Below the pieces are notes generated by a model. The model was not told the DNA's origin and did no database searches. It saw only the letters and a program-made list of their open reading frames with translations. From a virus (taxonomy: Duplodnaviria > Caudoviricetes): a DNA stretch of 64,000 nucleotides. Below are positions 5,044 through 25,027 of this stretch, piece by piece (position 1 is the first letter of the stretch; each line of letters opens with the position of its first letter). The stretch spans positions 1 through 64,000 of IMG/VR virus record IMGVR_UViG_3300033067_000343; one strand, written 5' to 3'. A program made the translations under genes and the position numbers.

Positions 5044-5538
5044 ATGCAGACTATCAAAACATATTTATATGACAACACAGTGGAGGTCCAAATTTTGGAT
5101 ACCTCTATTTTCACAGTAAGGAATCGCAAAGTGTACAGCAGATCTGTAACCGTATACCAGGGAATTGACAATCCTATCCAAGTTATTGTCAAAAATCAAG
5201 ATCAAAAGAAAGTTGATCTTACAGGATATGCTATGCAAGCCGATATCCAGGACCCAACAAACAAAATAACCGTAATGAGTTATGCAGTTACATGGGCAAA
5301 CATTGCACAGGGCTTGGGCCAATTCACAATTGACTCTACGACTGTTAACAGTCTTGAGCAACGCTTTTACAAATTAACATTTAGAACAATAAAAACATCA
5401 GACAACTCACAAAAGCCAGCATACATCGATGACAATTATGGCGTGCCATTGGATCTACAAGTCCTACCAGCATACTATGAGAACACAGAAGGTTTGCCAG
5501 ATGAACAAGAGTATGTAATTGATGGTGGAGCAATATAA
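5044..5538 (+). CDS. virion structural protein (BppU-N/baseplate-like beta domain)
   Basis: VYQGIDNPIQVIVKNQDQKKVDLTG pattern; TAAATA at 5020-5025; precedes a fibre gene. Confidence 0.5.
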   Translation: MQTIKTYLYDNTVEVQILDTSIFTVRNRKVYSRSVTVYQGIDNPIQVIVKNQDQKKVDLTGYAMQADIQDPTNKITVMSYAVTWANIAQGLGQFTIDSTTVNSLEQRFYKLTFRTIKTSDNSQKPAYIDDNYGVPLDLQVLPAYYENTEGLPDEQEYVIDGGAI

Positions 5539-8531
5539 TGACAGTAGCGAACGTAGTTATCAGACAAGTATTATTAAAGCGTGGCAACACTGCTACCATG
5601 AGTGCCTACACTGGCCCAATTGGCGAAGTTACTGTTGATACAGATTTAGACACTTTGCGAGTACAAGACGGCATTAATGCCGGCGGAACCCTTTTAGCAA
5701 CGCAGGATTACGTAGATAGTGCTGTAACCACTGTAAGTGGTGTAACAGACCTAACACCAATCTATGCCAACATTGCAGCAATCAACGCAAACATTGTTAC
5801 TTTGTATGCCAATGCATCAACACAAAGTAACAGCATTACATCTTTAACTTCAAATGCCGCTGTTCAAAACGCGGCAATCATTGCATTGCAAGCTGCGGAT
5901 CTAGTATTACAAGGTGAAATTGACACAACCAATGCACAATGGATTGCGAACGTTGCTAGCTTACAAGCCAATATCATTGCTGCCAATGCAGCCATTGCAG
6001 CTTTAGGTGGCGGAGTTGATTCTGCCGAACTAGATGCTCTACGTGCAAACATTGAAGCAGCCAACGTTAACATTGCAGCTTTGCAAAGTGTAACGAGCTC
6101 ACAAGGTGCAGACATTGTTACCTTGTTTGCTAACGCAGCAGTACAAAGCGGCAACATCGCAGCCCTTACTACTACAGTAAACACCAACACAGGCGACATT
6201 GCTACCTTATTTGCAAACGCAGCATACCAATCAGGTTGGTTTAGTGGATTGCAGTCTAATGCAGCTATCCAAGATGCTGCTATTGCTAGCCTGCAATCAA
6301 ATGCAGGTGTACAAGATGCTGCAATTACTTCATTACGCAGTGACTTAAACACAAACGTTGCCACTATCACTGGGCAATTGTCCACACACGATACAGCCAT
6401 TAGTACCCTAACTGCAAACGCAGCAGGTCAGGCACAGTTATTGTATCTATTGGATGCTAACGCCGCTACCCAAAACGATTACCTAAATGGATTGCTTGCT
6501 AACGCAGCAGCACAAGCAGGTGACATTGTTACGTTGTATGCCAATGCCGCAGCTCAAGCTGGCACATTAGTTACCTTAACAGCGAACGCAGCCACACAAG
6601 CAGATGCATTAACTGTTTTGACTGCCAATGCCGCGACCCAGAGTGCAAGCATTGCTGACCTTTATGCAAACGCAGCCACTCAAAATACAGAGCTAACCAC
6701 ATTAACAGCCAACGCAGCTTACCAAGCAGACTGGTTAACATCGTTGACAGCTAACGCCGGTGTCCAAAGTGACGCATTGGTAGTATTGACTGCTAACGCA
6801 GCAGCACAGGCAGCAACGCTTACAACACTGACAGCAAACGCAGCAACTCAATCGGCTGCACTTGATGTAATTACAGCTAACTTGGCTGTACAAACTGCAA
6901 ACGCAGCAGCACAAAACTCTGCGTTAACTGTATTAACTGCAAACGCCGCAGGGCAAAGTGACTACCTTGATGGATTACTTGCTAACGCAGCGGCACAGGC
7001 AGCAAGTCTAACAACATTGTTTGGTAATGCATCTACTCAAGCAGGTATCCTAACAACAATTAACTCTAATGTAGCCGCTGCAAACGCAGCTATCTCTGCA
7101 TTGCAGTCAACCGTTGGCACAAACTCTGCTGATATTGTTACATTGTTTGCCAATGCAGCAACCCAAAACTCTGCATTAAACACTTTAACCGCTAACGCAG
7201 CGTACCAAGCAGACTGGATAGCATCATTGCAGTCTATCACAACAGCCAATGCAGCAACACAATCTGATCAAATTGACCTAATCAACAGTAATGTAAGCAC
7301 GTTAACCACAACAGTTAACGGAATCATTGTTGGTAGTGGATTTGTTACTCCGGCAGACCTTGCAGCTAACATGGCCATTGCTAACTCAGCAATTGTGTCG
7401 GCGACTACTGGAAACATCACGTTGTCTGGTGCAATTACTACGTCTAACGTTATTCTTGAAGCAGGTGGCGTGTTCTGGGCCAACGGTGCTCGTGTAACTT
7501 CGTATGGTAACATTGCAGTTAGCAACTACATCCAAAGCTTCAACGGTGTAATCACTTCTAACATCTTAACAGTTACAGAACAACTCAAGAGCGACACATA
7601 CCAATTTGCAAACGGAGTTTCGATCTTTACCACAATAACTCCAACGGTGCTTGGTAACCTTAGAGTTAGCAATCAACAAATTACTGGACTTAACGTAGTA
7701 GATCCGATTATTTTAGGTAACGCTGCGGTGTCAACTCAGGTAGTTCAAGTTAATTCTCAGCTTGTGGCAAACTCTGCAATACCGAGTACTAATCACACCA
7801 CTGGGGCATTGATTATCCCTAACGGTGGGCTTGGTGTTGCTGGCAACGTTTACTTAAGTGGTCACCCAGATACACGCTTCCAAGTTGGCGAAGGCGGTCA
7901 GTTCTTACCAAACGTGTTAGCACAGTTTACTAGCAACGTTGATTCGTATGTTCAAATTAACATGCAGAACTTGAGTAGCGGCCCACTTGCTAGCTCGGAC
8001 TTTGTTGCCACAGCAGACAACGGCAATGATACTCAAAACTTTATTGACATGGGTATTGCAAGTAGCACCTACTTGTTCCCAGGTTACACTGCTATTAAAC
8101 CAAACGACGGTTACTTGTTAACTAACGGTGGCAACTTATTGTTGGCAACAACAACCATTGGCACATCGGTTAATTTCTATGCAGGCGGAGCTGAGGACGC
8201 TAACCAAGTTGGTAAATGGGACGCTGGCAATTTAACTATTAGTACTCATATTCTTCCATCTTCACCATCTACATTTACCTTAGGTAATGTTGGCGCAGAA
8301 TTTGGCAACGCATATCTTTCAAGCACACACATATCGGGCGACCTTATGTTCATGGGTAGCCCTGCTGGTGCTATCGTTGGGGCATCGTCAATCTCAACAG
8401 TAAATCTAACAGCAACAGGTAATATCTCATTTACTATGGCCAACGCCACACATTGGACAACTCCAGTCTCAAGTGTTGCGGCAGCATTAAATCAACTTGC
8501 TGCTAGAATCTGGGCAATAGAGAACCCCTAA
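5538..8531 (+). CDS. long tail fibre/adhesin with Mtd-N-like N-terminus and coiled-coil stalk
   Basis: LKRG...TGPIGEVTVDTDLDTLRVQDG N-terminal motif; about two dozen NA(A/G/S)xQ repeats; beta-rich C-terminus. Confidence 0.75.
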   Translation: MTVANVVIRQVLLKRGNTATMSAYTGPIGEVTVDTDLDTLRVQDGINAGGTLLATQDYVDSAVTTVSGVTDLTPIYANIAAINANIVTLYANASTQSNSITSLTSNAAVQNAAIIALQAADLVLQGEIDTTNAQWIANVASLQANIIAANAAIAALGGGVDSAELDALRANIEAANVNIAALQSVTSSQGADIVTLFANAAVQSGNIAALTTTVNTNTGDIATLFANAAYQSGWFSGLQSNAAIQDAAIASLQSNAGVQDAAITSLRSDLNTNVATITGQLSTHDTAISTLTANAAGQAQLLYLLDANAATQNDYLNGLLANAAAQAGDIVTLYANAAAQAGTLVTLTANAATQADALTVLTANAATQSASIADLYANAATQNTELTTLTANAAYQADWLTSLTANAGVQSDALVVLTANAAAQAATLTTLTANAATQSAALDVITANLAVQTANAAAQNSALTVLTANAAGQSDYLDGLLANAAAQAASLTTLFGNASTQAGILTTINSNVAAANAAISALQSTVGTNSADIVTLFANAATQNSALNTLTANAAYQADWIASLQSITTANAATQSDQIDLINSNVSTLTTTVNGIIVGSGFVTPADLAANMAIANSAIVSATTGNITLSGAITTSNVILEAGGVFWANGARVTSYGNIAVSNYIQSFNGVITSNILTVTEQLKSDTYQFANGVSIFTTITPTVLGNLRVSNQQITGLNVVDPIILGNAAVSTQVVQVNSQLVANSAIPSTNHTTGALIIPNGGLGVAGNVYLSGHPDTRFQVGEGGQFLPNVLAQFTSNVDSYVQINMQNLSSGPLASSDFVATADNGNDTQNFIDMGIASSTYLFPGYTAIKPNDGYLLTNGGNLLLATTTIGTSVNFYAGGAEDANQVGKWDAGNLTISTHILPSSPSTFTLGNVGAEFGNAYLSSTHISGDLMFMGSPAGAIVGASSISTVNLTATGNISFTMANATHWTTPVSSVAAALNQLAARIWAIENP
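5805..7262 (+). repeat. coding tandem repeat, mostly 14-aa (42-bp) ANAAxQ units
   Basis: LTANAATQ/LFANAAYQ/LLANAAAQ recur with 14-residue spacing. Confidence 0.85.
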
Positions 8532-11655: not shown

Positions 11656-11699
11656 CAAGTTATTGCTAAACCATAAATATAACTAATTGGAGTGATATC

Positions 11700-11951
11700 T
11701 TGCAGAAGCGTACTCGTAGCATTTTAGACGAACTTGCTAGCATGCCTGTTGCTAAGGACCAGGCTAGCTTAGTCGAAAGTCGTGCAACCCATGTAATTCA
11801 AGGTGCTATCAACTTGATAAATTTTATCAAGGAAAATTACGATGCCGAAACAAGTGCTGAACTAGAGCGCCGCCTCTTAAACAGCATTAGGGCACAAGAT
11901 CCTGCTAAATTCACTCGAGGAATTAGGAGACAACGTAGTAATGAAAATTAA
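11700..11951 (+). CDS. hypothetical late protein
   Basis: TAAATA 11674-11679, SD GGAG, TTG start. Confidence 0.65.
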   Translation: MQKRTRSILDELASMPVAKDQASLVESRATHVIQGAINLINFIKENYDAETSAELERRLLNSIRAQDPAKFTRGIRRQRSNEN

Positions 11952-12540
11952 TGATGTTATATCGGAAGCGGGCTTCTGGAGTGGAGTTGCAAAAGGCTTA
12001 GGTTCACCACAGCTTGCAAAGGCAATTGATTCTGCAAACGCAACTAGCACAGGCACAACCCCTGTTGACCCAGAACAGCCCCCAGCAGAACAACCGGCTG
12101 CAACACCGCCAGTTAACTACGATATTCCGGCGTATAAGCGCCAAGGTAAAACTATCCCTGGTGTAACTCCGCCTGCACCTGCGGCACCACAGGTACCAAC
12201 AGTTGCCGATCAACAAAGCAAAGTGGGAGTTGGTCAGATTAATAAAATTATTCCCACTCTTAGAACCCGAGATTTAAACAGTGTTAAAAAGACCGTCGAT
12301 GCTACTTTGGCTAAGAAAGCACAATCATCACCGGCCCCAACAGTAGCACCTGCTGCGGCCCCTACTACCGCGTCAGCACCGGCGCAACCTGTTTCGGGCG
12401 AACCCGTTAGGATTGGTGGCCAAAAGTTGGATCCAAATAATCCAGCTGATGCTAAAATATTGCAAAAGATACAAAGTCAACAAGTAGCCGAAGGAATCGA
12501 TTTAGCTGAAGTCCTATGGCGCAAAATGAAATCTAAGTGA
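11941..12540 (+). CDS. Pro/Ala-rich putative head-internal protein
   Basis: MKINDVISE N-terminus; low complexity. Confidence 0.6.
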   Translation: MKINDVISEAGFWSGVAKGLGSPQLAKAIDSANATSTGTTPVDPEQPPAEQPAATPPVNYDIPAYKRQGKTIPGVTPPAPAAPQVPTVADQQSKVGVGQINKIIPTLRTRDLNSVKKTVDATLAKKAQSSPAPTVAPAAAPTTASAPAQPVSGEPVRIGGQKLDPNNPADAKILQKIQSQQVAEGIDLAEVLWRKMKSK

Positions 12541-14417
12541 TGAGCCAAACAAGCACAGGAAATGGCGCAATTGAGAATGCAACACCGATAGCACGAAACT
12601 GTGTACCCGGTGTTGTTTCTACGATCAAAAATGCTTTGCCTAGCGAACTGCTAGCCAATTTGCAAGCAGACATTGGTAGTGCCGGATACAAAGATGAATC
12701 TGGGGACATTGACTTAATGATCGACTCCGCGGATGTAATTGAGTATTTCCAAACTGTTGATGCACAATCTGCAAAGAAGAAGCTGCAACAGTATCTTGAG
12801 CAACGTGGTTACAAAGCAGTAACCAAAGGACGTAACGTTCATGTTGGCGTTCCTTACAAAGATCAAAGCGGCGACCCAAAACTAGCACAAGTTGACATTA
12901 TGGTCATTGATGATGCTGCCGCGGTTGCTCCATGGCACCAACATGGTCGTCGTGGCATGTATGATCAAGAGGGATTTAAAGGCAGCAGCAACTTTATTCT
13001 AATGAGCAGCATTGCAAAGCACATGGGACTAAAGTTTGATGCATTCGGTGGCAAGCTAATTGATCGCAATACAGATGAAGTTGTGGGCAAGACTCGCAGA
13101 CAAGTTGCTAAGATCCTACTGGGACCTAAAGCAAAAGAAAAGGATCTAGATAGTGTTAGCTCAATGATGGCTAGACTAGTAGATGATCCAGATCGCGAAG
13201 GCAAACTAGCACAAGCTAGACAAGATGCAGCAGCAGGCAACATTGAACTTCCAGAAGACGTTTATCCAGGCACACAAACTTGGCTAGATCAAATGGAAGA
13301 AAGCCCTAAGTTCTCTTTTGTGAAGTCCCTAAAAGAAAACCACGATACTACAGGACGCACTCCGCACCCTGAAGACAGTATCTTTGATGGTAGTAATGCA
13401 GCGGCTATGGCCGTACGTTCGTTGGGTGGCGTAATTGCTAATCCAACTAAAGTAACAGTTAAGTGGGACGGATTTCCTGCACTTATCTTTGGACGTACAC
13501 CAGAAGGCAAGCTAGCCATTATGGACAAGTACATGTTTGATAAGCGTATCCTTGCAACTAGTCCAGAAGACTGGCAACGCTACGATTCGCAAAAGCCAAC
13601 AGGCACAATGCGTCCTGACTTGTACACTAAGCTAGCGGCAATTTGGGCAGGACTAGATGCAGTGACTAAAGGTGAAGGATTCTTCTGGGGCGACTTGCTT
13701 TGGGCAGGACCACTAAATCCTGTTAAAGGCAACTACGTGTTTAAGCCTAACACTGTAGAGTATGCTGTTCCTGTGCAAAGTGGCATTGGGCAAACAATTA
13801 AAGGCAGCAGTGGCGGTATTGTTGTGCATCAACACTTTGGCGAGCTAGGCGGCACAGCATCAGAATGGGACGGAAAAGGTCTTGTTACTGTACAGGGCGG
13901 CGTAACTATTATCAAGCCCGGGCTAGGCATTCGTTTTAGCCTACGTGATCCAGTATCCTTAAGCAAAGCAGCGGCCGCAGCAGTAGAACGTTACGGCTCA
14001 GCAGTAGACGATTTGTTTGTTAACATTCCATCTAGCACAAAAGCTCTAATCAAGACTTACTTCAACAAGAAGATTACTTGCCAAACGGACCAGGATCTGC
14101 ATGATTGGATGAAGGGTAATGTTAGCAATAAACAGTACTCAGCTCTTGTTGGAGACGATTATTCGGGCTCTTTGTTCACTACAGACGGCGAAGGGCAAGT
14201 ACACGAAAGCCAAGGTTACGCAGGATTAAAAGCTATTTGGAACGCGATATATGCGTACAAATTGAATCTTGCACAGCAGCTTGAACAGCAAGTACAAGGT
14301 GTGCAGCAGTCCGTTAATGGACAAGCAGGTGGCGAAGGTTTTGTATTCCCCGGGCCGGATGGGTTAATTAAGCTGGTTAACAGAGGGCAGTTTAGTCGAG
14401 CTCTTTTTAACAAGTAA
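12537..14417 (+). CDS. fusion of a pol-beta-type nucleotidyltransferase domain and an ATP-dependent ligase-like domain
   Basis: IGSAG...SGDIDL and QVDIM (NTase); TVKWDG, WGDLL, EGFV, IKLVNR (ligase motifs I, III, IV, V). Confidence 0.65.
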   Translation: MMSQTSTGNGAIENATPIARNCVPGVVSTIKNALPSELLANLQADIGSAGYKDESGDIDLMIDSADVIEYFQTVDAQSAKKKLQQYLEQRGYKAVTKGRNVHVGVPYKDQSGDPKLAQVDIMVIDDAAAVAPWHQHGRRGMYDQEGFKGSSNFILMSSIAKHMGLKFDAFGGKLIDRNTDEVVGKTRRQVAKILLGPKAKEKDLDSVSSMMARLVDDPDREGKLAQARQDAAAGNIELPEDVYPGTQTWLDQMEESPKFSFVKSLKENHDTTGRTPHPEDSIFDGSNAAAMAVRSLGGVIANPTKVTVKWDGFPALIFGRTPEGKLAIMDKYMFDKRILATSPEDWQRYDSQKPTGTMRPDLYTKLAAIWAGLDAVTKGEGFFWGDLLWAGPLNPVKGNYVFKPNTVEYAVPVQSGIGQTIKGSSGGIVVHQHFGELGGTASEWDGKGLVTVQGGVTIIKPGLGIRFSLRDPVSLSKAAAAAVERYGSAVDDLFVNIPSSTKALIKTYFNKKITCQTDQDLHDWMKGNVSNKQYSALVGDDYSGSLFTTDGEGQVHESQGYAGLKAIWNAIYAYKLNLAQQLEQQVQGVQQSVNGQAGGEGFVFPGPDGLIKLVNRGQFSRALFNK

Positions 14418-14489
14418 TTAACACCTTTTTTATCAAAAAGATAAATATTTACATGAGGCGATAAGCCCATTAATATTAGGAGAAATAAA

Positions 14490-14852
14490 ATGGCATTAGG
14501 ACAATTACGTGTAAACGGCACAACTCAAGCAGGTAGCTTCTACGGTTACCAACCACTATTCTTGTTGATCACTGGTACCAACGTTGGTACAGCAGATACA
14601 CAACCAGGCGGCGGTGTAGCAATTACTGAAGGTAACTTCACTAAAGCTATCCGTGCTATCGAAACTATCGGTAGCATTGTTATCATCGGTGCTCGTGCAG
14701 ACAACGGTTTCGTTGTTGCTCTAGACGGTGCTACAGCATCTGACAACGGCGAAGCTAGCGTTGCTGCTCGTGTTGATACAGTTGTTACAGCAGCTACTGG
14801 TGTTTCTACAACAGTTGCAGTTAAGACATTGACATTGACTGAGTGGGCTTAA
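14490..14852 (+). CDS. small abundant virion protein (putative)
   Basis: TAAATA 14442-14447, strong SD, own terminator, strongly biased codons. Confidence 0.7.
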   Translation: MALGQLRVNGTTQAGSFYGYQPLFLLITGTNVGTADTQPGGGVAITEGNFTKAIRAIETIGSIVIIGARADNGFVVALDGATASDNGEASVAARVDTVVTAATGVSTTVAVKTLTLTEWA

Positions 14853-14944: not shown

Positions 14945-15388
14945 ATGGCCTTAGGCGCATTAAAAGTAAACGGCGATGCAACCGCAGTAGTTGCAACAGA
15001 CGTAGATGGTAACACAGACGGTTCGGCAAGAACAGCTACAGGCATTATTGCCCCTGGCATGACTGGCCGCATCACGGCATACAAGATTACAGGTGTTGGC
15101 GGATACGCTGCATCTAACTTAACATTGGAAAGCGGTGTTAACCGTACCAGTGGCAACGTTGGTCTAGTATCACAAATCTTGAACGTCATTCAACAACGTA
15201 ATACCGTTGTAGCATACCAAGTTGAAAGCGGCAGCAGCCAGCTAAGTGCATTGGTAGAACACAGTGCATGGACTGACGCAGACTTGCAAGCATACATTCG
15301 TGCAAACATCACACAACTAGGTGTATATGGTAACAGCACAGTGTCTAGCGTAACAGTTAGCAGCACAGGTGGCTTGAAGTTAGCTTAA
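14945..15388 (+). CDS. small abundant virion protein (putative), N-terminus similar to 14490 gene
   Basis: MALGALKVNG vs MALGQLRVNG; TAAATA 14919-14924; SD GGAG. Confidence 0.7.
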   Translation: MALGALKVNGDATAVVATDVDGNTDGSARTATGIIAPGMTGRITAYKITGVGGYAASNLTLESGVNRTSGNVGLVSQILNVIQQRNTVVAYQVESGSSQLSALVEHSAWTDADLQAYIRANITQLGVYGNSTVSSVTVSSTGGLKLA

Positions 15389-15430: not shown

Positions 15431-15449
15431 CTTGGCCATAAATATCTAC

Positions 15450-17628: not shown

Positions 17629-18071
17629 TGCGTCTAAGCGAATTTGTCACAGAAAGCAGTGGCCTTGGGGGAATGATTGAGGACGAAGCCGAATCTCGCG
17701 GCGATAGCGTTCTTTTAACTGCCCTTGAAGAGTTACGCAATAGAGCACACGGACATTCAGTTCCGCGTGTTCGTGTTGACGCTTTAGTGAACTTGATCAA
17801 GCGTTTGCCAGGTGGCGAAATGTTTAACGCAGAAGCATTGGAAAACGCCCGCAAGAGCAATGAAGCTGTTAAGAATTTAATTGCAGACATTAAAGACGAC
17901 GAAGTACATGATCCTGCCGCAGGCGGTACTTCTATTGTTAAGTACGTATACCTAACTCCATTTGATGATGATCCATTCTCAAATGAAGGCGGCGGCGGCA
18001 CTTCAGCTGGTCAAACTGCACCGGAAAAAACTGTTTCTGGTATGGCTAGCAGAGCACTCGGAAAACGATAA
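17628..18071 (+). CDS. hypothetical protein (putative head-internal)
   Basis: MRLSEFVTE N-terminus; overlaps the upstream stop. Confidence 0.6.
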   Translation: MRLSEFVTESSGLGGMIEDEAESRGDSVLLTALEELRNRAHGHSVPRVRVDALVNLIKRLPGGEMFNAEALENARKSNEAVKNLIADIKDDEVHDPAAGGTSIVKYVYLTPFDDDPFSNEGGGGTSAGQTAPEKTVSGMASRALGKR

Positions 18072-19189: not shown

Positions 19190-19922
19190 TAACATATTCT
19201 GCCCAGGCTTGGTGTGCTTTGTGTCCTGGGTGGAATCCATCTTCCATAAAATCATTCATGCTCTTGGCCAATTCATAAAGGCCATTACGCTCTGCATCTG
19301 TAAAGATCCACTTGTCTAGTTCGAGCTCTCTGATCATTGAATGTAGTCCGGGCATTGCTGTTACGCCAAAGTCGCCATTGGGACTAACGTTCTTCTTATC
19401 GTTCCAGTAGTTTACGTAACTCATAAACTTGTACTTGATACCTTTCGCTTCCAAGAAGTTTTTGAGCTTAACCATTTCAGTAATGTTAATGGTTGCTAAA
19501 CTGTAGTCACTGGACACTTTGTACATTTCGTAGAACATCTTATGTGCAACAGGGTTCTTAAACCATGTGCCCATTTGACCACCGCTGAAAATATAACCTA
19601 GTTGATTGTCGGGTAGCCTACGATAAAACCCATAACTGTCAAACAATTCGTTCCACGATGGGTCAGTGATGTCAGTTAAGTAATCTAATCGACTCACGCC
19701 ACTCCACATTACTAGAACTTGATCGTACTTGCCCGGATTGTCTAGCACTTCTCTGATAACGCTATCTGCGATGTATTGATTACCTGCCGCTGCTTCTGCG
19801 AGATTGGTAATCTCGTCGGTTGGGTTCATCTCACTAAAGTATCTTGGCCAACATACATTGGGTCCGCCGGGGAAATCGGGCCATTGACTAAAACTGCATC
19901 CGGATATTAGAATTTTCATCAA
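19170..19922 (-). CDS. SGNH/GDSL hydrolase-like protein
   Basis: GCSFS block I, AGN block II, DGFHP block V; minus-strand TAAATA at 19925-19930. Confidence 0.6.
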   Translation of the reverse strand: MMKILISGCSFSQWPDFPGGPNVCWPRYFSEMNPTDEITNLAEAAAGNQYIADSVIREVLDNPGKYDQVLVMWSGVSRLDYLTDITDPSWNELFDSYGFYRRLPDNQLGYIFSGGQMGTWFKNPVAHKMFYEMYKVSSDYSLATINITEMVKLKNFLEAKGIKYKFMSYVNYWNDKKNVSPNGDFGVTAMPGLHSMIRELELDKWIFTDAERNGLYELAKSMNDFMEDGFHPGHKAHQAWAEYVTKQIKS

Positions 19923-20701: not shown

Positions 20702-22273
20702 ATGGCTGTCGTACAGATTAGTAGAATTCAAGCCCGTAGAGGTTTACAACAAGATTTACCAACCCTAGCAAGTGCCGAACTTGGCTGGAGCGTTGACCAG
20801 CGTAGATTGTTTATTGGTAACGGTACCCTTACTGAAGGCGCCCCTACCGAAGGTGTTACTGAAATTTTAACTCAGTACACAGACTTAACAACAGTATTAC
20901 GTAACTACACATTCCGCGGCAACGCGGGTGGATACACAGCACAAACTGGTCCATCTATGTTGAGTCCGACTGTTCGTAGTTTCCAAGATAAACTTGACGA
21001 TTTTGTTAACGTTAAAGACTTTGGTGCAACCGGTAACGGAGTTACTGATGACACAGCAGCGATTAATAGAGCCATTACACAGATCTATTATGCTCCACAC
21101 CTAAATGATACAAGAGTACGCAGAACCTTGTATTTTCCTGCAGGTACTTACAATGTATCTGGCACAGTGTTGTTAATTCCACCTTATGCACGTTTAGTTG
21201 GCGACGGTATTGAAAGTACCGTTATCCAACAAACAGACGGAACACAACCTTGCTTAATGCAGGTAACTGACAGCTTGTACCAAACTGGTGCTAGCCTAGG
21301 TCAAAACAGTGCAACCCTACCTGGTTATGTAACTATTGAAGAAATGAGTTTAGCAAACACCAACGACAAGGACATTATTATCCTTGACAGTGTGATGCAC
21401 TTTACATTCTTCTCCGTTGAGTTTTTAGGCAGTTTGTCTAACCCAACTACCGCAGGTAGCCAAGCATACGCTGGCGTTAAGGTTAAGTCTTTTGCTCGTA
21501 CCAGTGAAAACGTTAACTTCTGGTCTTGCAACTTTAAGAATACTCGTTACGCTGTGCTAAGTGATGACGCAGGTGCCGATGTTAAATTTAACGGATGCTC
21601 CTTCGTTGGTTTGTATAAAGGCATGAAGTTGGGCCAAAACAGTACGCCCACAACAATGCCATCTAACTACAAGATTATCAACTGCGTATTCTATAGCATT
21701 GCTAACTCCGCAATTGAATGCTATGCAGGTGTAAGCGGGGTATTGAGCTCTGGTAACAACTACCTTGACGTTGGCAATAACTTTGCTGGTGTGGGTAGCC
21801 CTGTAGCTCCTGTGTTGAGCTTTGTGTCTGACGGTAACTACAGCTTGTGCGACACCTTTGCACGTACTGATGCCGACGACCTTGTGCAAAAACGTATCAG
21901 CTACAACGGAAGCAAGTTTGTAAGCATTCAGTCTAACGTGGGCTTGGTATCTGGTAATTATGTAACTGGTATCGGCGGCACTGTGGTGTTAACAAACAAT
22001 ACACCAGTCTATGCGTCCACAGGTATTGTGTTACGTGATGCATGTCAAGTAAACTATACAATCATTCGTGGCATTACGTTAAGACATGGATCCTTTGTTT
22101 ACGCTGGATCTAACTCTCAACAAAACTTTTCCGACAACTACATGATGTCTGGATTAAATACTATCACATTATCAGCAGGCCTAACCCTAGGCGGCGATGC
22201 TGTTATTGTGTATCAGACTACTGATACTGGCGTTGACGCCACAATGAAATACAACATCAACTATTTTGATTAA
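20702..22273 (+). CDS. tail fibre/tailspike with pectate-lyase-3-like beta-helix
   Basis: RIQARRG...AELGW...RRLFIGNG N-terminus; VNVKDFGATGNGVTDDTAAINRA; YFPAGTY. Confidence 0.75.
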   Translation: MAVVQISRIQARRGLQQDLPTLASAELGWSVDQRRLFIGNGTLTEGAPTEGVTEILTQYTDLTTVLRNYTFRGNAGGYTAQTGPSMLSPTVRSFQDKLDDFVNVKDFGATGNGVTDDTAAINRAITQIYYAPHLNDTRVRRTLYFPAGTYNVSGTVLLIPPYARLVGDGIESTVIQQTDGTQPCLMQVTDSLYQTGASLGQNSATLPGYVTIEEMSLANTNDKDIIILDSVMHFTFFSVEFLGSLSNPTTAGSQAYAGVKVKSFARTSENVNFWSCNFKNTRYAVLSDDAGADVKFNGCSFVGLYKGMKLGQNSTPTTMPSNYKIINCVFYSIANSAIECYAGVSGVLSSGNNYLDVGNNFAGVGSPVAPVLSFVSDGNYSLCDTFARTDADDLVQKRISYNGSKFVSIQSNVGLVSGNYVTGIGGTVVLTNNTPVYASTGIVLRDACQVNYTIIRGITLRHGSFVYAGSNSQQNFSDNYMMSGLNTITLSAGLTLGGDAVIVYQTTDTGVDATMKYNINYFD

Positions 22274-22723: not shown

Positions 22724-25027
22724 ATGAGTCAAATACAAGTAACAAAAAGAGACGGACGTAAAGAGCCGCTAAATCTAGAAAAATTACATAAGGTTGTGTT
22801 TTGGGCAACCGAGGGCATTACAGGAGTTAGTGCTAGCGAAGTAGAAATTAATAGTCATGTGCAGTTTTATAACGGTATCAAAAGCACAGACATCCAAGAA
22901 ACCCTAATCAAGAGTGCAGCAGATTTAATTAGTGAAGAGTCACCCAACTATCAATACGTTGCAGGTAGACTACTAACATATCACATCTACAAACAAGTAT
23001 ACGGCGGCTACACACCTTGGCCTCTACTAAAATTAGTTAAGCGTAACATTGACATTGGTTACTACACTCCTGAGCTGTTGGAAAACTACTCAGAGGATGA
23101 GATCAATCAACTGGATACCTACCTCCACCACCGTCGTGATGAGAACTTCACCTATGTTGCAATGGAACAATGGCGTGGCAAGTACCTAGTACAAAACCGC
23201 GTCACCAATGAGCTATACGAAACTCCACAGTCAGCATACATGATGATTGCTGCCACGTTGTTTATGGCTTATCCTAAAGAAACACGTATGCAATGGGTAA
23301 AGGATTACTATGATGCTATTTCTAACTTTGATATTTCCTTGCCTACTCCTGTTATGGCTGGGGTTCGCACTCCACAAAAACAATTTAGTTCGTGTGTGCT
23401 TATCGAGTCTGGCGATAGTTTGGACAGTATCAATGCTACTGCATCTTCAATCGTTAAATACGTCTCACAAAAAGCTGGAATTGGTATTGGAGCAGGACGA
23501 ATTCGGGCGTTGGGTTCGCCTATCCGCTCCGGCGATGCGTACCACACAGGAGTTACGCCCTTCCTTAAACTATTTCAGGCCGCAACACGCTCTTGTTCGC
23601 AAGGTGGCGTAAGAAACGGTGCAGCAACAATCTACTATCCAATTTGGCACTTAGAAGCCGAAGACCTATTGGTGTTGAAAAACAACAAAGGTACAGAAGA
23701 CAACCGTGTTCGTCAAATGGACTACGGTGTGCAGTTCAACAAACTAATGTATGAGCGTTTGATCACAGGCGGTGACATTACCCTGTTTAGCCCACATGAT
23801 GTTCCTGAGATGTATGAAGCATTCTTTAACGACCAGGACAAGTTCCGTGAGTTGTATGAGAAAGCAGAACGTAACACCAAGCTACGTAAAAAGACTTTCA
23901 AGGCATCAGAACTGTTTAGCAAGTTCATGACTGAGCGTAAAGACACTGGTCGCATTTATTTGATGAACGTGGACCATGCCAATACACATAGCCCATTCAA
24001 AGAAAAGCTACATCCTATCAAGATGAGCAACTTGTGTACAGAGATTGACTTGCCTACTAAGCCATTGAACGACATCAATGACGAACTAGGTCGTATTGCA
24101 TTGTGTACTCTATCTGCACAGAACTGGGGCAACGTTAAGAAGCCGCAAGACTTTGAGCGTATGTGTACTCTAAGCGTTCGCGGTCTAGATGCTTTGTTGA
24201 GCTATCAGAACTATCCTGTTAAGGCAGCAGAACTAGCAACAAAAGAATTCCGTCCAATTGGTAACGGCATTATCAACTTTGCTTACTTCTTGGCCAAGCA
24301 CGATGTTAGCTACAGTGACCCTGCTGCACTTGCACTAGTTGACGAGTATGCAGAAGCATGGTCATACTACTTGATCAAAGCAAGTGCTGACCTAGCTAAA
24401 GAGCAAGGACCTTGCGAGAAGTGGGAAGAACTAAAGTATGCCGATGGTATCTTGCCAATCGACACACGTAAGAAAGAAGTTGACGAACTTGTTGAGCATA
24501 AAGAGCGTATGCCATGGCGTGCTCTGCGTGAACAGATCCTAGACTCCGGCATTCGCAATGCAACACTAATGGCTCTAATGCCAGCAGAAACATCTGCACA
24601 GATCTCTAATGCCACTAACGGTATTGAAGCTCCACGCAGCTATGTTTCTATTAAGCAAAGCAAGCACGGTGTATTGAAACAGGTTGTACCTGAATTTAAG
24701 AAACTTAAGAACAAATACGAATTGTTATGGGACCAACGTAGCCCGGAAGGCTACTTAAAACTTTGTGCAGTATTGCAAAAATGGATTGATCAAGGCATTA
24801 GTGTCAACACTTCGTACAATCCTAAGTTCTACGAAGATGAAAAGATCCCTATGAGTGAGATGCTCCAGCACCTGATCATGTGCTACAAATACGGAACTAA
24901 ACAACTTTACTATTTCAACACCAATGATGGTCAGGGCGAAATTGACGTTGATAAGTTATCAGCTGCATTACAATTGCCAGCAGAAGAACTTATGGACCAA
25001 GAAGATTGCGATTCCTGCGTAATTTAA
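22724..25027 (+). CDS. nrdA: ribonucleoside-diphosphate reductase class Ia alpha subunit
   Basis: ATP cone VTKRDG, QFSSCVL, SNLCTEI, C-terminal CDSC. Confidence 0.97.
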   Translation: MSQIQVTKRDGRKEPLNLEKLHKVVFWATEGITGVSASEVEINSHVQFYNGIKSTDIQETLIKSAADLISEESPNYQYVAGRLLTYHIYKQVYGGYTPWPLLKLVKRNIDIGYYTPELLENYSEDEINQLDTYLHHRRDENFTYVAMEQWRGKYLVQNRVTNELYETPQSAYMMIAATLFMAYPKETRMQWVKDYYDAISNFDISLPTPVMAGVRTPQKQFSSCVLIESGDSLDSINATASSIVKYVSQKAGIGIGAGRIRALGSPIRSGDAYHTGVTPFLKLFQAATRSCSQGGVRNGAATIYYPIWHLEAEDLLVLKNNKGTEDNRVRQMDYGVQFNKLMYERLITGGDITLFSPHDVPEMYEAFFNDQDKFRELYEKAERNTKLRKKTFKASELFSKFMTERKDTGRIYLMNVDHANTHSPFKEKLHPIKMSNLCTEIDLPTKPLNDINDELGRIALCTLSAQNWGNVKKPQDFERMCTLSVRGLDALLSYQNYPVKAAELATKEFRPIGNGIINFAYFLAKHDVSYSDPAALALVDEYAEAWSYYLIKASADLAKEQGPCEKWEELKYADGILPIDTRKKEVDELVEHKERMPWRALREQILDSGIRNATLMALMPAETSAQISNATNGIEAPRSYVSIKQSKHGVLKQVVPEFKKLKNKYELLWDQRSPEGYLKLCAVLQKWIDQGISVNTSYNPKFYEDEKIPMSEMLQHLIMCYKYGTKQLYYFNTNDGQGEIDVDKLSAALQLPAEELMDQEDCDSCVI

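Follow-up and report, generated by a model that had tools for sequence, protein, structure and literature searches.

We analysed a window of 64,000 nucleotides of viral DNA (Duplodnaviria; Caudoviricetes; IMG/VR record IMGVR_UViG_3300033067_000343, positions 1 to 64,000), in which a gene on the plus strand (12537..14417) encodes a fusion of two candidate nucleic-acid enzymes. According to its structural model, the N-terminal half is a nucleotidyltransferase of the Pol-beta superfamily similar to family-X DNA polymerases, and the C-terminal half, which belongs to the Pfam family DUF6267, is ligase-like. We consider the chance somewhat better than even that this fusion is a two-enzyme nucleic-acid end-repair protein, expressed late, packaged into the phage head, cut by a protease and ejected together with the DNA. 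This reading draws on the folds of the two halves, their invariant catalytic residues, modular fusions among the relatives, synteny and promoter boxes. The source record is an 81-kb fragment rated 23% complete, of which the window is the first 64 kb; the rating implies a giant phage with a genome of about 350 kb.

The open reading frame (ORF) is uninterrupted over 626 codons from GTG 12537. The second codon, ATG 12540, is the likelier start and yields a protein of 625 residues. Since this ATG forms a TGATG overlap with the stop codon of the upstream 199-residue gene, and the closest relatives start at the equivalent codon, translational coupling of the fusion gene to its upstream neighbour is suggested. 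An earlier reading made from the sequence alone (below, the sequence-only reading) had named a set of motifs in both halves, and each was present at the expected place: GSAG (residues 47-50), SGDIDL (55-60), QVDIM (118-122) and SLKE (264-267), followed in the C-terminal half by KWDG (309-312), WGDL (384-387), EGFV (600-603) and IKL (611-613). They are not chance resemblances, since their key residues are invariant (near-invariant for E267 of SLKE) across 19 relatives of the N-terminal domain and 39 relatives of the C-terminal domain (the latter 27-69% identical in the alignment) and the structural models are confident. When the whole protein was compared with Pfam, DUF6267 alone was found. In PHROGs it matched a family of unknown function, and there was no match in NCBIfam or in a phmmer search of PDB sequences.

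The N-terminal domain (residues 1-250, 12537..13286, plus strand) is modelled as a palm and a thumb followed by extra C-terminal helices (AlphaFold, mean pLDDT 88.4). Invariant among the 19 relatives are G47, S48, A49, G50, D57, D59, D120, H134 and H136. The hG[GS] motif and the first two catalytic aspartates (G47, S48, D57, D59) lie at 12675..12716; the third catalytic aspartate, D120 of QVDIM, and the two histidines of an HQHG motif (H134, H136) lie at 12888..12947. This arrangement is the superfamily pattern hG[GS]...[DE]h[DE]h...third carboxylate, and the thumb of the model is contiguous with the palm in the PolX topology. A Foldseek search of PDB gave 245 matches at E<=1e-3; the listed ones belong without exception to family-X polymerases, and Pol lambda and Pol mu head them (E about 1e-6). 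VIA-align, which is independent of Foldseek, ranked Pol X of African swine fever virus (ASFV) as the best chain (Z 10.1, root-mean-square deviation 3.1, 157 of 176 residues aligned), in a structure complexed with DNA containing a one-nucleotide gap. It was followed by TdT, Pol beta, Thermus PolX, Pol lambda and Leishmania Pol beta, and all eight matches with Z>=8 belong to family X (Z 9.1-10.1 over 157-183 residues). The palm is similar to that of many other nucleotidyltransferases (Z 6-7.7). Terminal uridylyltransferases, MenT, CD-NTases and the CCA-adding enzyme aligned over about 95 palm residues, with Z<=7.7.

Judged from the model, the N-terminal half is therefore a Pol-beta-superfamily nucleotidyltransferase, as the sequence-only reading had proposed from the motifs; the fold and the invariant G47, S48, D57, D59 and D120 agree. 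The structure comparison puts minimal family-X DNA polymerases closest, not the CCA/MNT enzymes that this reading had named for comparison, and matches the CCA-adding enzyme in the palm only. Neither a PolX family nor RlaP (PF10127) was found for this half in Pfam at E<=1, and tblastn gave no match to the domain in 50,697 isolated phage genomes. The HQHG motif is located 14 residues past D120, which we take to be the position where PolX enzymes carry a YFTG-type motif. Because there is no PolX profile match and HQHG replaces the YFTG-type motif, the domain is not classed as a member of PolX, and we describe it as a predicted minimal palm-plus-thumb, PolX-like enzyme. It shares with ASFV Pol X and the family the palm with hG[GS], DxD and a third aspartate, then the thumb, and the 8-kDa and fingers domains are missing from it as they are from ASFV Pol X. 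On the other hand, its identity to family X is only 13-20%, and it has about 45 additional helical residues at the C-terminus and is fused to a ligase-like domain.

The C-terminal domain (residues 272-626, 13350..14414, plus strand) matches Pfam DUF6267 (PF19782) with 95.2 bits against a gathering cut-off of 27 (E 7.1e-27, residues 277-625). Twelve positions are invariant across its 39 relatives: H277, K309, D311, G312, K331, D386, Y409, H431, K575, E600, G601 and K612. Motif I, KWDG (13461..13472), contains three of them, K309, D311 and G312, and K309 is the predicted nucleotidyl-accepting lysine. Motif IV (E600-G601) and motif V (K612, R616) are invariant or near-invariant and fall in the last beta-hairpin (14334..14384). 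In the model (pLDDT 93.3, pTM 0.90) D386, Y409, E600-G601 and K612 are on predicted strands in the canonical order of motifs III, IIIa, IV and V. From the end points of the structural alignments, K612 corresponds approximately in position to the motif V lysine of T4 Rnl2 and to that of T7 ligase.

In an exhaustive structural search of 48,161 chains, the top 18 matches of the C-terminal half were all ATP-dependent RNA or DNA ligases (Z 5.4-7.2), including Naegleria Rnl5 (7.2), T4 Rnl2 (6.5), Sulfolobus DNA ligase (6.3), Trl1, T4 Rnl1, LigIV and T4 DNA ligase. In the viral structure library BFVD, the first annotated matches outside the DUF6267 family were RNA ligases. A protein-language-model search of the ESM Atlas led to an RNA_ligase cluster, which we treat as a lead only. 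Foldseek returned nothing under E 0.1 for this domain in PDB, its weak list being rich in ligases. At the sequence level, no ligase family was found in Pfam at E<=10 for any of the 39 relatives, and a profile search of PDB sequences gave no match. Comparison of DUF6267 with six gp30-type ligases by hhalign gave a probability of 0.15%, and the lone alignment, which pairs KWDG with KLDG, is not significant. Since the list of structural matches is uniform and the invariant residues fit motifs I, III, IIIa, IV and V in order on predicted strands, it is reasonably safe, as far as models go, to regard DUF6267 as a very divergent, ligase-like member of the covalent nucleotidyltransferase (polynucleotide ligase) superfamily. 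The RNA-ligase-like domain of the sequence-only reading is thus upheld as ligase-like, T4 Rnl1 and T4 Rnl2 being among the matches.

The domain has no OB domain and no motif VI: the protein ends 10 residues past motif V, and the sole extra module is an all-helical insert (approximately residues 473-583). In this architecture, with motifs IV and V at the very end, it resembles RNA ligases more closely than DNA ligases. The likeness to Rnl2 and Rnl5 (T4 Rnl2, Naegleria NgrRnl) comprises the fold (Z 6.5-7.2), KxDG, putative motifs III, IIIa, IV and V in the canonical order, and the lack of an OB domain of the DNA-ligase type. However, DUF6267 has no similarity to them at the sequence level. The insert of about 110 residues between motifs IIIa and IV moves motifs IV and V to the extreme C-terminus, motif III has D in place of E, and there is an invariant HPED motif near the N-terminus.

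The two domains combine freely in related proteins. A word-indexed search yielded 408 related proteins and an exhaustive search 980 representative clusters; among the best 150 of these clusters we counted about 30 that contain both domains. Full-length relatives are 40-91% identical to the fusion. Stand-alone relatives of the C-terminal half are 360-385 residues long (55-69% identity) and those of the N-terminal half 229-263 residues, and the N-terminal half also occurs behind a different N-terminal extension. Thus the PolX-like and DUF6267 modules are separate, adjacent or fused. They are fused in the window and in loci L021 and L030, and in L036 the PolX-like module is instead fused to module A, the 199-residue product of the preceding gene. 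DUF6267 is present in at least 585 viral contigs and in 353 isolated phage genomes, nearly all of them marine T4-like cyanophages.

Some DUF6267 proteins carry further domains. A metagenomic protein of 1308 residues (P0158) combines DUF6267 with a HAD phosphatase similar to the NT5C 5'(3')-nucleotidase and with DUF5661, another of 1144 residues (P0164) combines it with HAD-like DUF2608, and two relatives (P0203, P0207) have an added cytidylyltransferase-like domain. The C-terminal extensions of the long relatives P0215 and P0123 had no match among PDB sequences. The union of a ligase with nucleotide-adding and phosphatase domains is characteristic of enzymes that heal and seal ends, among them LigD, Pnkp and tRNA ligase. 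By analogy, the HAD-phosphatase and cytidylyltransferase-like partners would fit an end-healing and sealing role. Bacterial LigD, with polymerase, phosphoesterase and ligase domains, likewise unites nucleotide addition and sealing in one chain, and DUF6267 relatives have an added phosphatase. In LigD, however, the polymerase belongs to the archaeo-eukaryotic primase type and the ligase has an OB domain; here the N-terminal half is of the Pol-beta type and DUF6267 has no such domain.

The recurrent cytidylyltransferase-like partner bears on an explanation that we consider very improbable, namely that DUF6267 is not a ligase. It would cap or nucleotidylate an RNA, DNA or protein end, or use NAD+, and the partner nucleotidyltransferases would make or recycle the nucleotide donor. 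The superfamily does include capping enzymes, which rank lower in the structural list (Z 4.3-4.8); repeated fusion or adjacency to a HIGH-type cytidylyltransferase-like domain could be accommodated in this way, and HPED has no counterpart among the classical ligase motifs. However, ligases and not capping enzymes fill all of the top 18 structural matches, and the order of the motifs together with the HAD phosphatase fusions suits end-joining.

To return to the proposed end-repair protein and its possible packaging in the head, a peptide at the junction of the two halves (residues 258-267, 13308..13337, plus strand) ends in L-K-E and is a candidate prohead-protease site. In alignments it corresponds to the initial 10-12 residues of DUF6267 proteins that stand alone, E267 is near-invariant, and the peptide is disordered in the model (pLDDT <50). 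The leader of the stand-alone proteins has 11-13 residues: Met, a basic or hydrophobic residue and Asp/Glu-Phe, with [L/I/V]-x-E at the end, and it is kept in members that are only about 28% identical elsewhere. In PolX-like modules that stand alone, the start is L-x-E and then GGN, and similar starts are seen in module A proteins. Because the same leader survives inside the fusion, the L-x-E site is, by sequence comparison, a conserved feature and not a chance tripeptide. The linker site SLKE, picked out in the sequence-only reading, thus coincides with the N-terminal leader of stand-alone DUF6267.

In T4, the capsid-targeting sequence consists of 10 residues and is removed by the prohead protease gp21 after Glu (PMC8442874, PMC10229621, PMC5694885). 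In sequence, the DUF6267-type leaders resemble it, as they do the short leaders, rich in Glu and hydrophobic residues and ending in [L/I]-x-E, of the T4 internal head proteins IPI-III and Alt (PMC8442874). A gp21-type protease (Peptidase_S77) is encoded in both complete relatives (G001, E 6.5e-26; G002, E 8.8e-28); no such gene was found in the 81-kb source fragment, which represents only 23% of a genome. A late-type promoter is a further point of likeness to the T4 proteins. The differences are that the fusion is not homologous to them, that its leader is internal, and that its packaging and cleavage are putative. The leader pattern occurs in 3 of the 98 ORFs of the window, all three inside this 7-kb cluster.

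The fusion gene belongs to a conserved transcription unit that consists of a TAAATA box, a gene of 83 residues, module A, the PolX-like module, DUF6267 and a T-run. It is regarded as a single unit because the box precedes the first gene, and the T-run and a second TAAATA follow DUF6267, across the loci. An ATAAATA box similar to T4 late promoters (11673..11679) lies 27 nucleotides before the first gene (11700..11951). In the window and in nine of the ten relatives examined, PA5oct included, the distance from TAAATA to this gene (82 residues in the orthologs) is 20-27 nucleotides. A T-run past the fusion stop is followed by a TAAATA box at 14441-14447 that starts the unit of the next gene (14418..14447 in all; all on the plus strand), and both elements directly follow DUF6267 in nine of nine loci. 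In T4, late promoters have TAAATA as their core. Their exact sequence, TATAAATA, was not enriched here, and conservation by position was confined to the shorter TAAATA. On the plus strand of the window, six of the eight ATAAATA copies (11673, 14441, 15438, 34661, 38180 and 50710) are 13-73 nucleotides upstream of gene starts; five are intergenic, and that at 15438 precedes a start inferred from relatives. Three of the eight fall in the 11.6-15.5 kb cluster. These boxes look like the late-type promoters of the phage. Both complete relatives have a gp55-like sigma factor, and PA5oct gives a weak match to one. On this sequence evidence, late transcription of the unit is probable.

The first gene of the unit is conserved across giant phages of the RaK2/PA5oct type, with tblastn matches in 50 giant-phage records, and matches phrog_11854, "virion structural protein" (E 4.8e-17). 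Module A (11941..12540, plus strand), whose stop overlaps the fusion start, has a leader ending in I-S-E and then a low-complexity region rich in proline and alanine. In relatives such as P0128, P0134 and the 742-residue ORF of L036, an equivalent of module A precedes a PolX-like module in the same chain. The order primase, DnaB, the 82-residue gene, module A, PolX-like module, DUF6267 is common to eight relatives, two of which are complete genomes (374 and 352 kb). Small conserved genes follow DUF6267, and a second nucleotidyltransferase paralog sometimes follows the PolX-like module. This second Pol-beta-type enzyme, of 347-387 residues, was located between the PolX-like gene and DUF6267 at L017:6928-7971 and L065:6778-7941; both copies have the motifs GSS, DIDL and QVDFM and are 64% identical to each other.

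By annotation, members of the unit are linked to virions in two other giant phages. In the syntenic cluster of PA5oct, the PolX-like module has a divergent homolog, EST35_0231 (hhalign 91%, E 1e-6), annotated as "structural protein, ESI-MS/MS", as are EST35_0226, 0227, 0230 and 0232-0235. Of these, EST35_0226 is the positional equivalent of module A. In CBB, the ortholog of the 83-residue gene, CBB_292, is annotated as "structural protein", and so are several syntenic CBB genes. PA5oct also has a "hypothetical protein" of 446 residues, EST35_0228 (L094:9119-10459), which matches the DUF6267 model in Foldseek (E 8.9e-5) and contains by eye the ligase-like motifs KIDG, SREGK, EGYVIR and KIVDK; it appears to be an unannotated ligase-like gene of a model giant phage. 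It is weakly related by sequence to Paride_0025, with later support from structure. EST35_0231 has a homolog in Paride_0028, and for Paride_0023 and Paride_0024 no relationship to PA5oct proteins was found by BLAST or hhalign.

With these elements in place, the following course of events can be proposed. The N-terminal domain, using D57, D59 and D120, would extend a 3'-OH end by one or a few nucleotides or fill a short gap. K309 of DUF6267 would become nucleotidylated and transfer the nucleoside monophosphate to an end with a 5'-phosphate, after which the second enzyme would seal the 3'-OH that the first had made. The fusion would be made as the last cistron of the unit, whose modules carry T4-like leaders ending in [L/I/V]-x-E. 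Because of these leaders, we propose that the proteins of the unit are built into the prohead and cut by a gp21-type protease, the fusion probably after LKE267, which would free two enzymes. Ejected with the DNA, they would act at the very start of infection. The activities, the timing, the packaging and the cleavage of the fusion are what we infer in this scheme. It is fair to read the gene as encoding a nucleotide-adding and an end-sealing enzyme joined at a genuine L-x-E site, within an operon that is probably late and is linked to virions; RNA repair by the fusion and its delivery in the virion we put forward as hypotheses. As to the substrate, we estimate that RNA ends are the likeliest, somewhat short of an even chance; DNA nicks, gaps or breaks, possibly with ribonucleotide patches, come next at roughly a third, and some other substrate is the least likely.

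A number of observations weigh against this scheme. Neither half has a sequence-profile tie to any ligase or PolX family in Pfam, PDB profile searches or hhalign, and the ligase fold match has a modest Z of 5-7.2, a range that the tool warns can be common. The HQHG of the thumb, standing in place of the YFTG-type motif, is not conserved in the PA5oct homolog. The leader pattern is not enriched over the window as a whole (3.1% of ORF N-termini, 1.9% of internal Met windows). The fusion lacks the N-terminal leader that stand-alone nucleotidyltransferase modules retain, and neither the cyanophage DUF6267 proteins nor the structural proteins of the CBB cluster show a leader. The ligase-like EST35_0228 is not flagged as virion-associated, and the PA5oct mass-spectrometry list includes virion-unrelated enzymes too (PMC7318152). 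Finally, the unit sits among replication genes, with primase and DnaB on one side and ribonucleotide reductase on the other; the flanks also include a UvsW-like helicase and a PD-(D/E)XK nuclease. The late operon of head-internal proteins suggested in the sequence-only reading was therefore confirmed in part: there is a distinct conserved unit with TAAATA boxes and virion-linked members, but the flanking genes are those of replication. That the neighbours are head-internal proteins sharing a leader is at most partly true, given the CBB structural proteins and the absence of enrichment over the window.

If the packaging step is dropped, the same two enzymes may be viewed as a cytoplasmic RNA repair system, an alternative that we regard as unlikely. 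The nucleotidyltransferase would restore 3' nucleotides of tRNA cut by host anticodon nucleases or toxins and DUF6267 would reseal it, in the manner of RlaP, which adds one or two nucleoside monophosphates to damaged RNA (bioRxiv 10.64898/2025.12.29.696909). For giant phages it is well established that a Pol-beta nucleotidyltransferase may be paired with an RNA ligase (PMC7824862). Bacterial and giant-phage systems of RlaP (PF10127) and RNA ligase resemble the present one in having such an enzyme linked to a ligase, with predicted 3' restoration followed by sealing (PMC7824862; bioRxiv 10.64898/2025.12.29.696909). They differ in that the nucleotidyltransferase here has a PolX-type thumb and no PF10127 match at E<=1, that the ligase is DUF6267 and not Rnl1, Rnl2 or RtcB, and that the modules are physically fused, with a possible link to the virion. 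The missing OB domain, the nick-sealing RNA ligases as nearest folds, the ESM Atlas lead and the HAD phosphatase fusions would all agree with RNA repair. So would the ligase content of G001 and G002, which have an ATP-dependent DNA ligase and no detected Rnl1 or Rnl2 family ligase (a weak absence, as control genomes gave no Rnl1 signal), so that DUF6267 would fill the niche of an RNA ligase. However, the N-terminal domain is similar to PolX DNA polymerases over palm and thumb and to RNA-specific nucleotidyltransferases over the palm only, and no polynucleotide kinase was identified in the unit. Moreover, the late-type boxes, the leaders and the detection in PA5oct virions indicate packaging.

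The gene neighbourhood and the cyanophage members of DUF6267 bring in the third alternative, DNA replication or repair, which we rate as slightly less likely again. The fusion would be a gap-filling polymerase and nick-sealing DNA ligase working on replicating phage DNA, like Pol X and ligase of ASFV in base-excision repair or like LigD, and the cyanophage DUF6267 would be a missing DNA ligase. The best fold match of the N-terminal domain, ASFV Pol X on gapped DNA, is consistent with this, as is the position of the unit, always after the primase and DnaB helicase genes and before those of ribonucleotide reductase. In the cyanophages Syn9 (L092:4929-7041, gp183-gp184) and S-PM2 (L093:3902-5681, p138-p139), DUF6267 comes just after the gp41 helicase and MazG genes; Syn9 gp183 matches the Pfam family with E 1e-98. 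It adjoins (Syn9 gp184) or is fused to (S-PM2) a HIGH-type cytidylyltransferase-like PF01467 domain. Neither phage has a detectable ligase of PF01068 or PF09414, in agreement with the report that gp30 homologs were not found in cyanomyoviruses (PMC2984593). The S-PM2 gene is, however, split in two ORFs in the GenBank record; the UniProt S-PM2 entry of 591 residues is the unsplit fusion. The giant-phage relatives G001 and G002 already encode an ATP DNA ligase of the gp30 type, and the 8-kDa and fingers domains are absent from the N-terminal half. DUF6267 also lacks the OB domain, which to our knowledge every ATP-dependent DNA ligase possesses. No NAD-dependent LigA was found. DUF6267 as the replicative ligase of the phage in the window was a candidate of its own, and we rejected it on account of the gp30-type ligases of the complete relatives.

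One possibility, which we find doubtful, is that DUF6267 is an unrecognised polynucleotide ligase family with two roles. In phages of the RaK2/PA5oct type it would be the partner of a PolX-type nucleotidyltransferase, targeted into the head by a T4-like leader. Cut from this partner by the prohead protease and injected along with the genome, it would mend phage DNA, or RNA cut by the host, within seconds of the start of infection. In T4-like cyanophages, standing alone beside the gp41 helicase, it would be the ligase whose absence has been reported ever since the first genomes of these phages.

Repair modules that combine a nucleotidyltransferase with a ligase were known before. For DUF6267, which had no assigned function, no mention was found in the literature searched, and its ligase-like nature was previously unrecognised. 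If it is a ligase, DUF6267 is a candidate for the enzyme listed as absent from cyanomyoviruses (PMC2984593). It would also represent a structurally distinct ligase/capping branch, with a helical insert, an HPED motif and no OB domain. The PolX-like fusion and the phosphatase fusions of the relatives would show phages assembling end-healing and sealing enzymes on a single chain, in parallel with LigD and tRNA ligase, and such compact proteins could serve as reagents. If the proteins do travel in the head, they would be a pair of repair enzymes that enters alongside the genome, which would amount to a new type of counter-defence cargo.

Several other features of the region were noted. The fusion gene is followed in the window by two small paralogous genes whose products start with MALG (14490-14852 and 14945-15388), the first with its own TAAATA box, and a gene of this type follows DUF6267 in every relative examined. 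Two genes with the Mtd_N domain, similar to tail fibres, occur among the replication genes (5538-8531 and 20702-22273), the second also having a pectate-lyase-like domain. Segments 17888-17965 and 19549-19811 match, in megablast, DNA annotated as ribonucleotide reductase in phages of Proteus, Xanthomonas and Erwinia (74-85% identity). The ORFs at these positions have no ribonucleotide reductase domain, and the true reductase gene is at 22724-25027; these matches could reflect a mobile insert in the reductase genes of the other phages.

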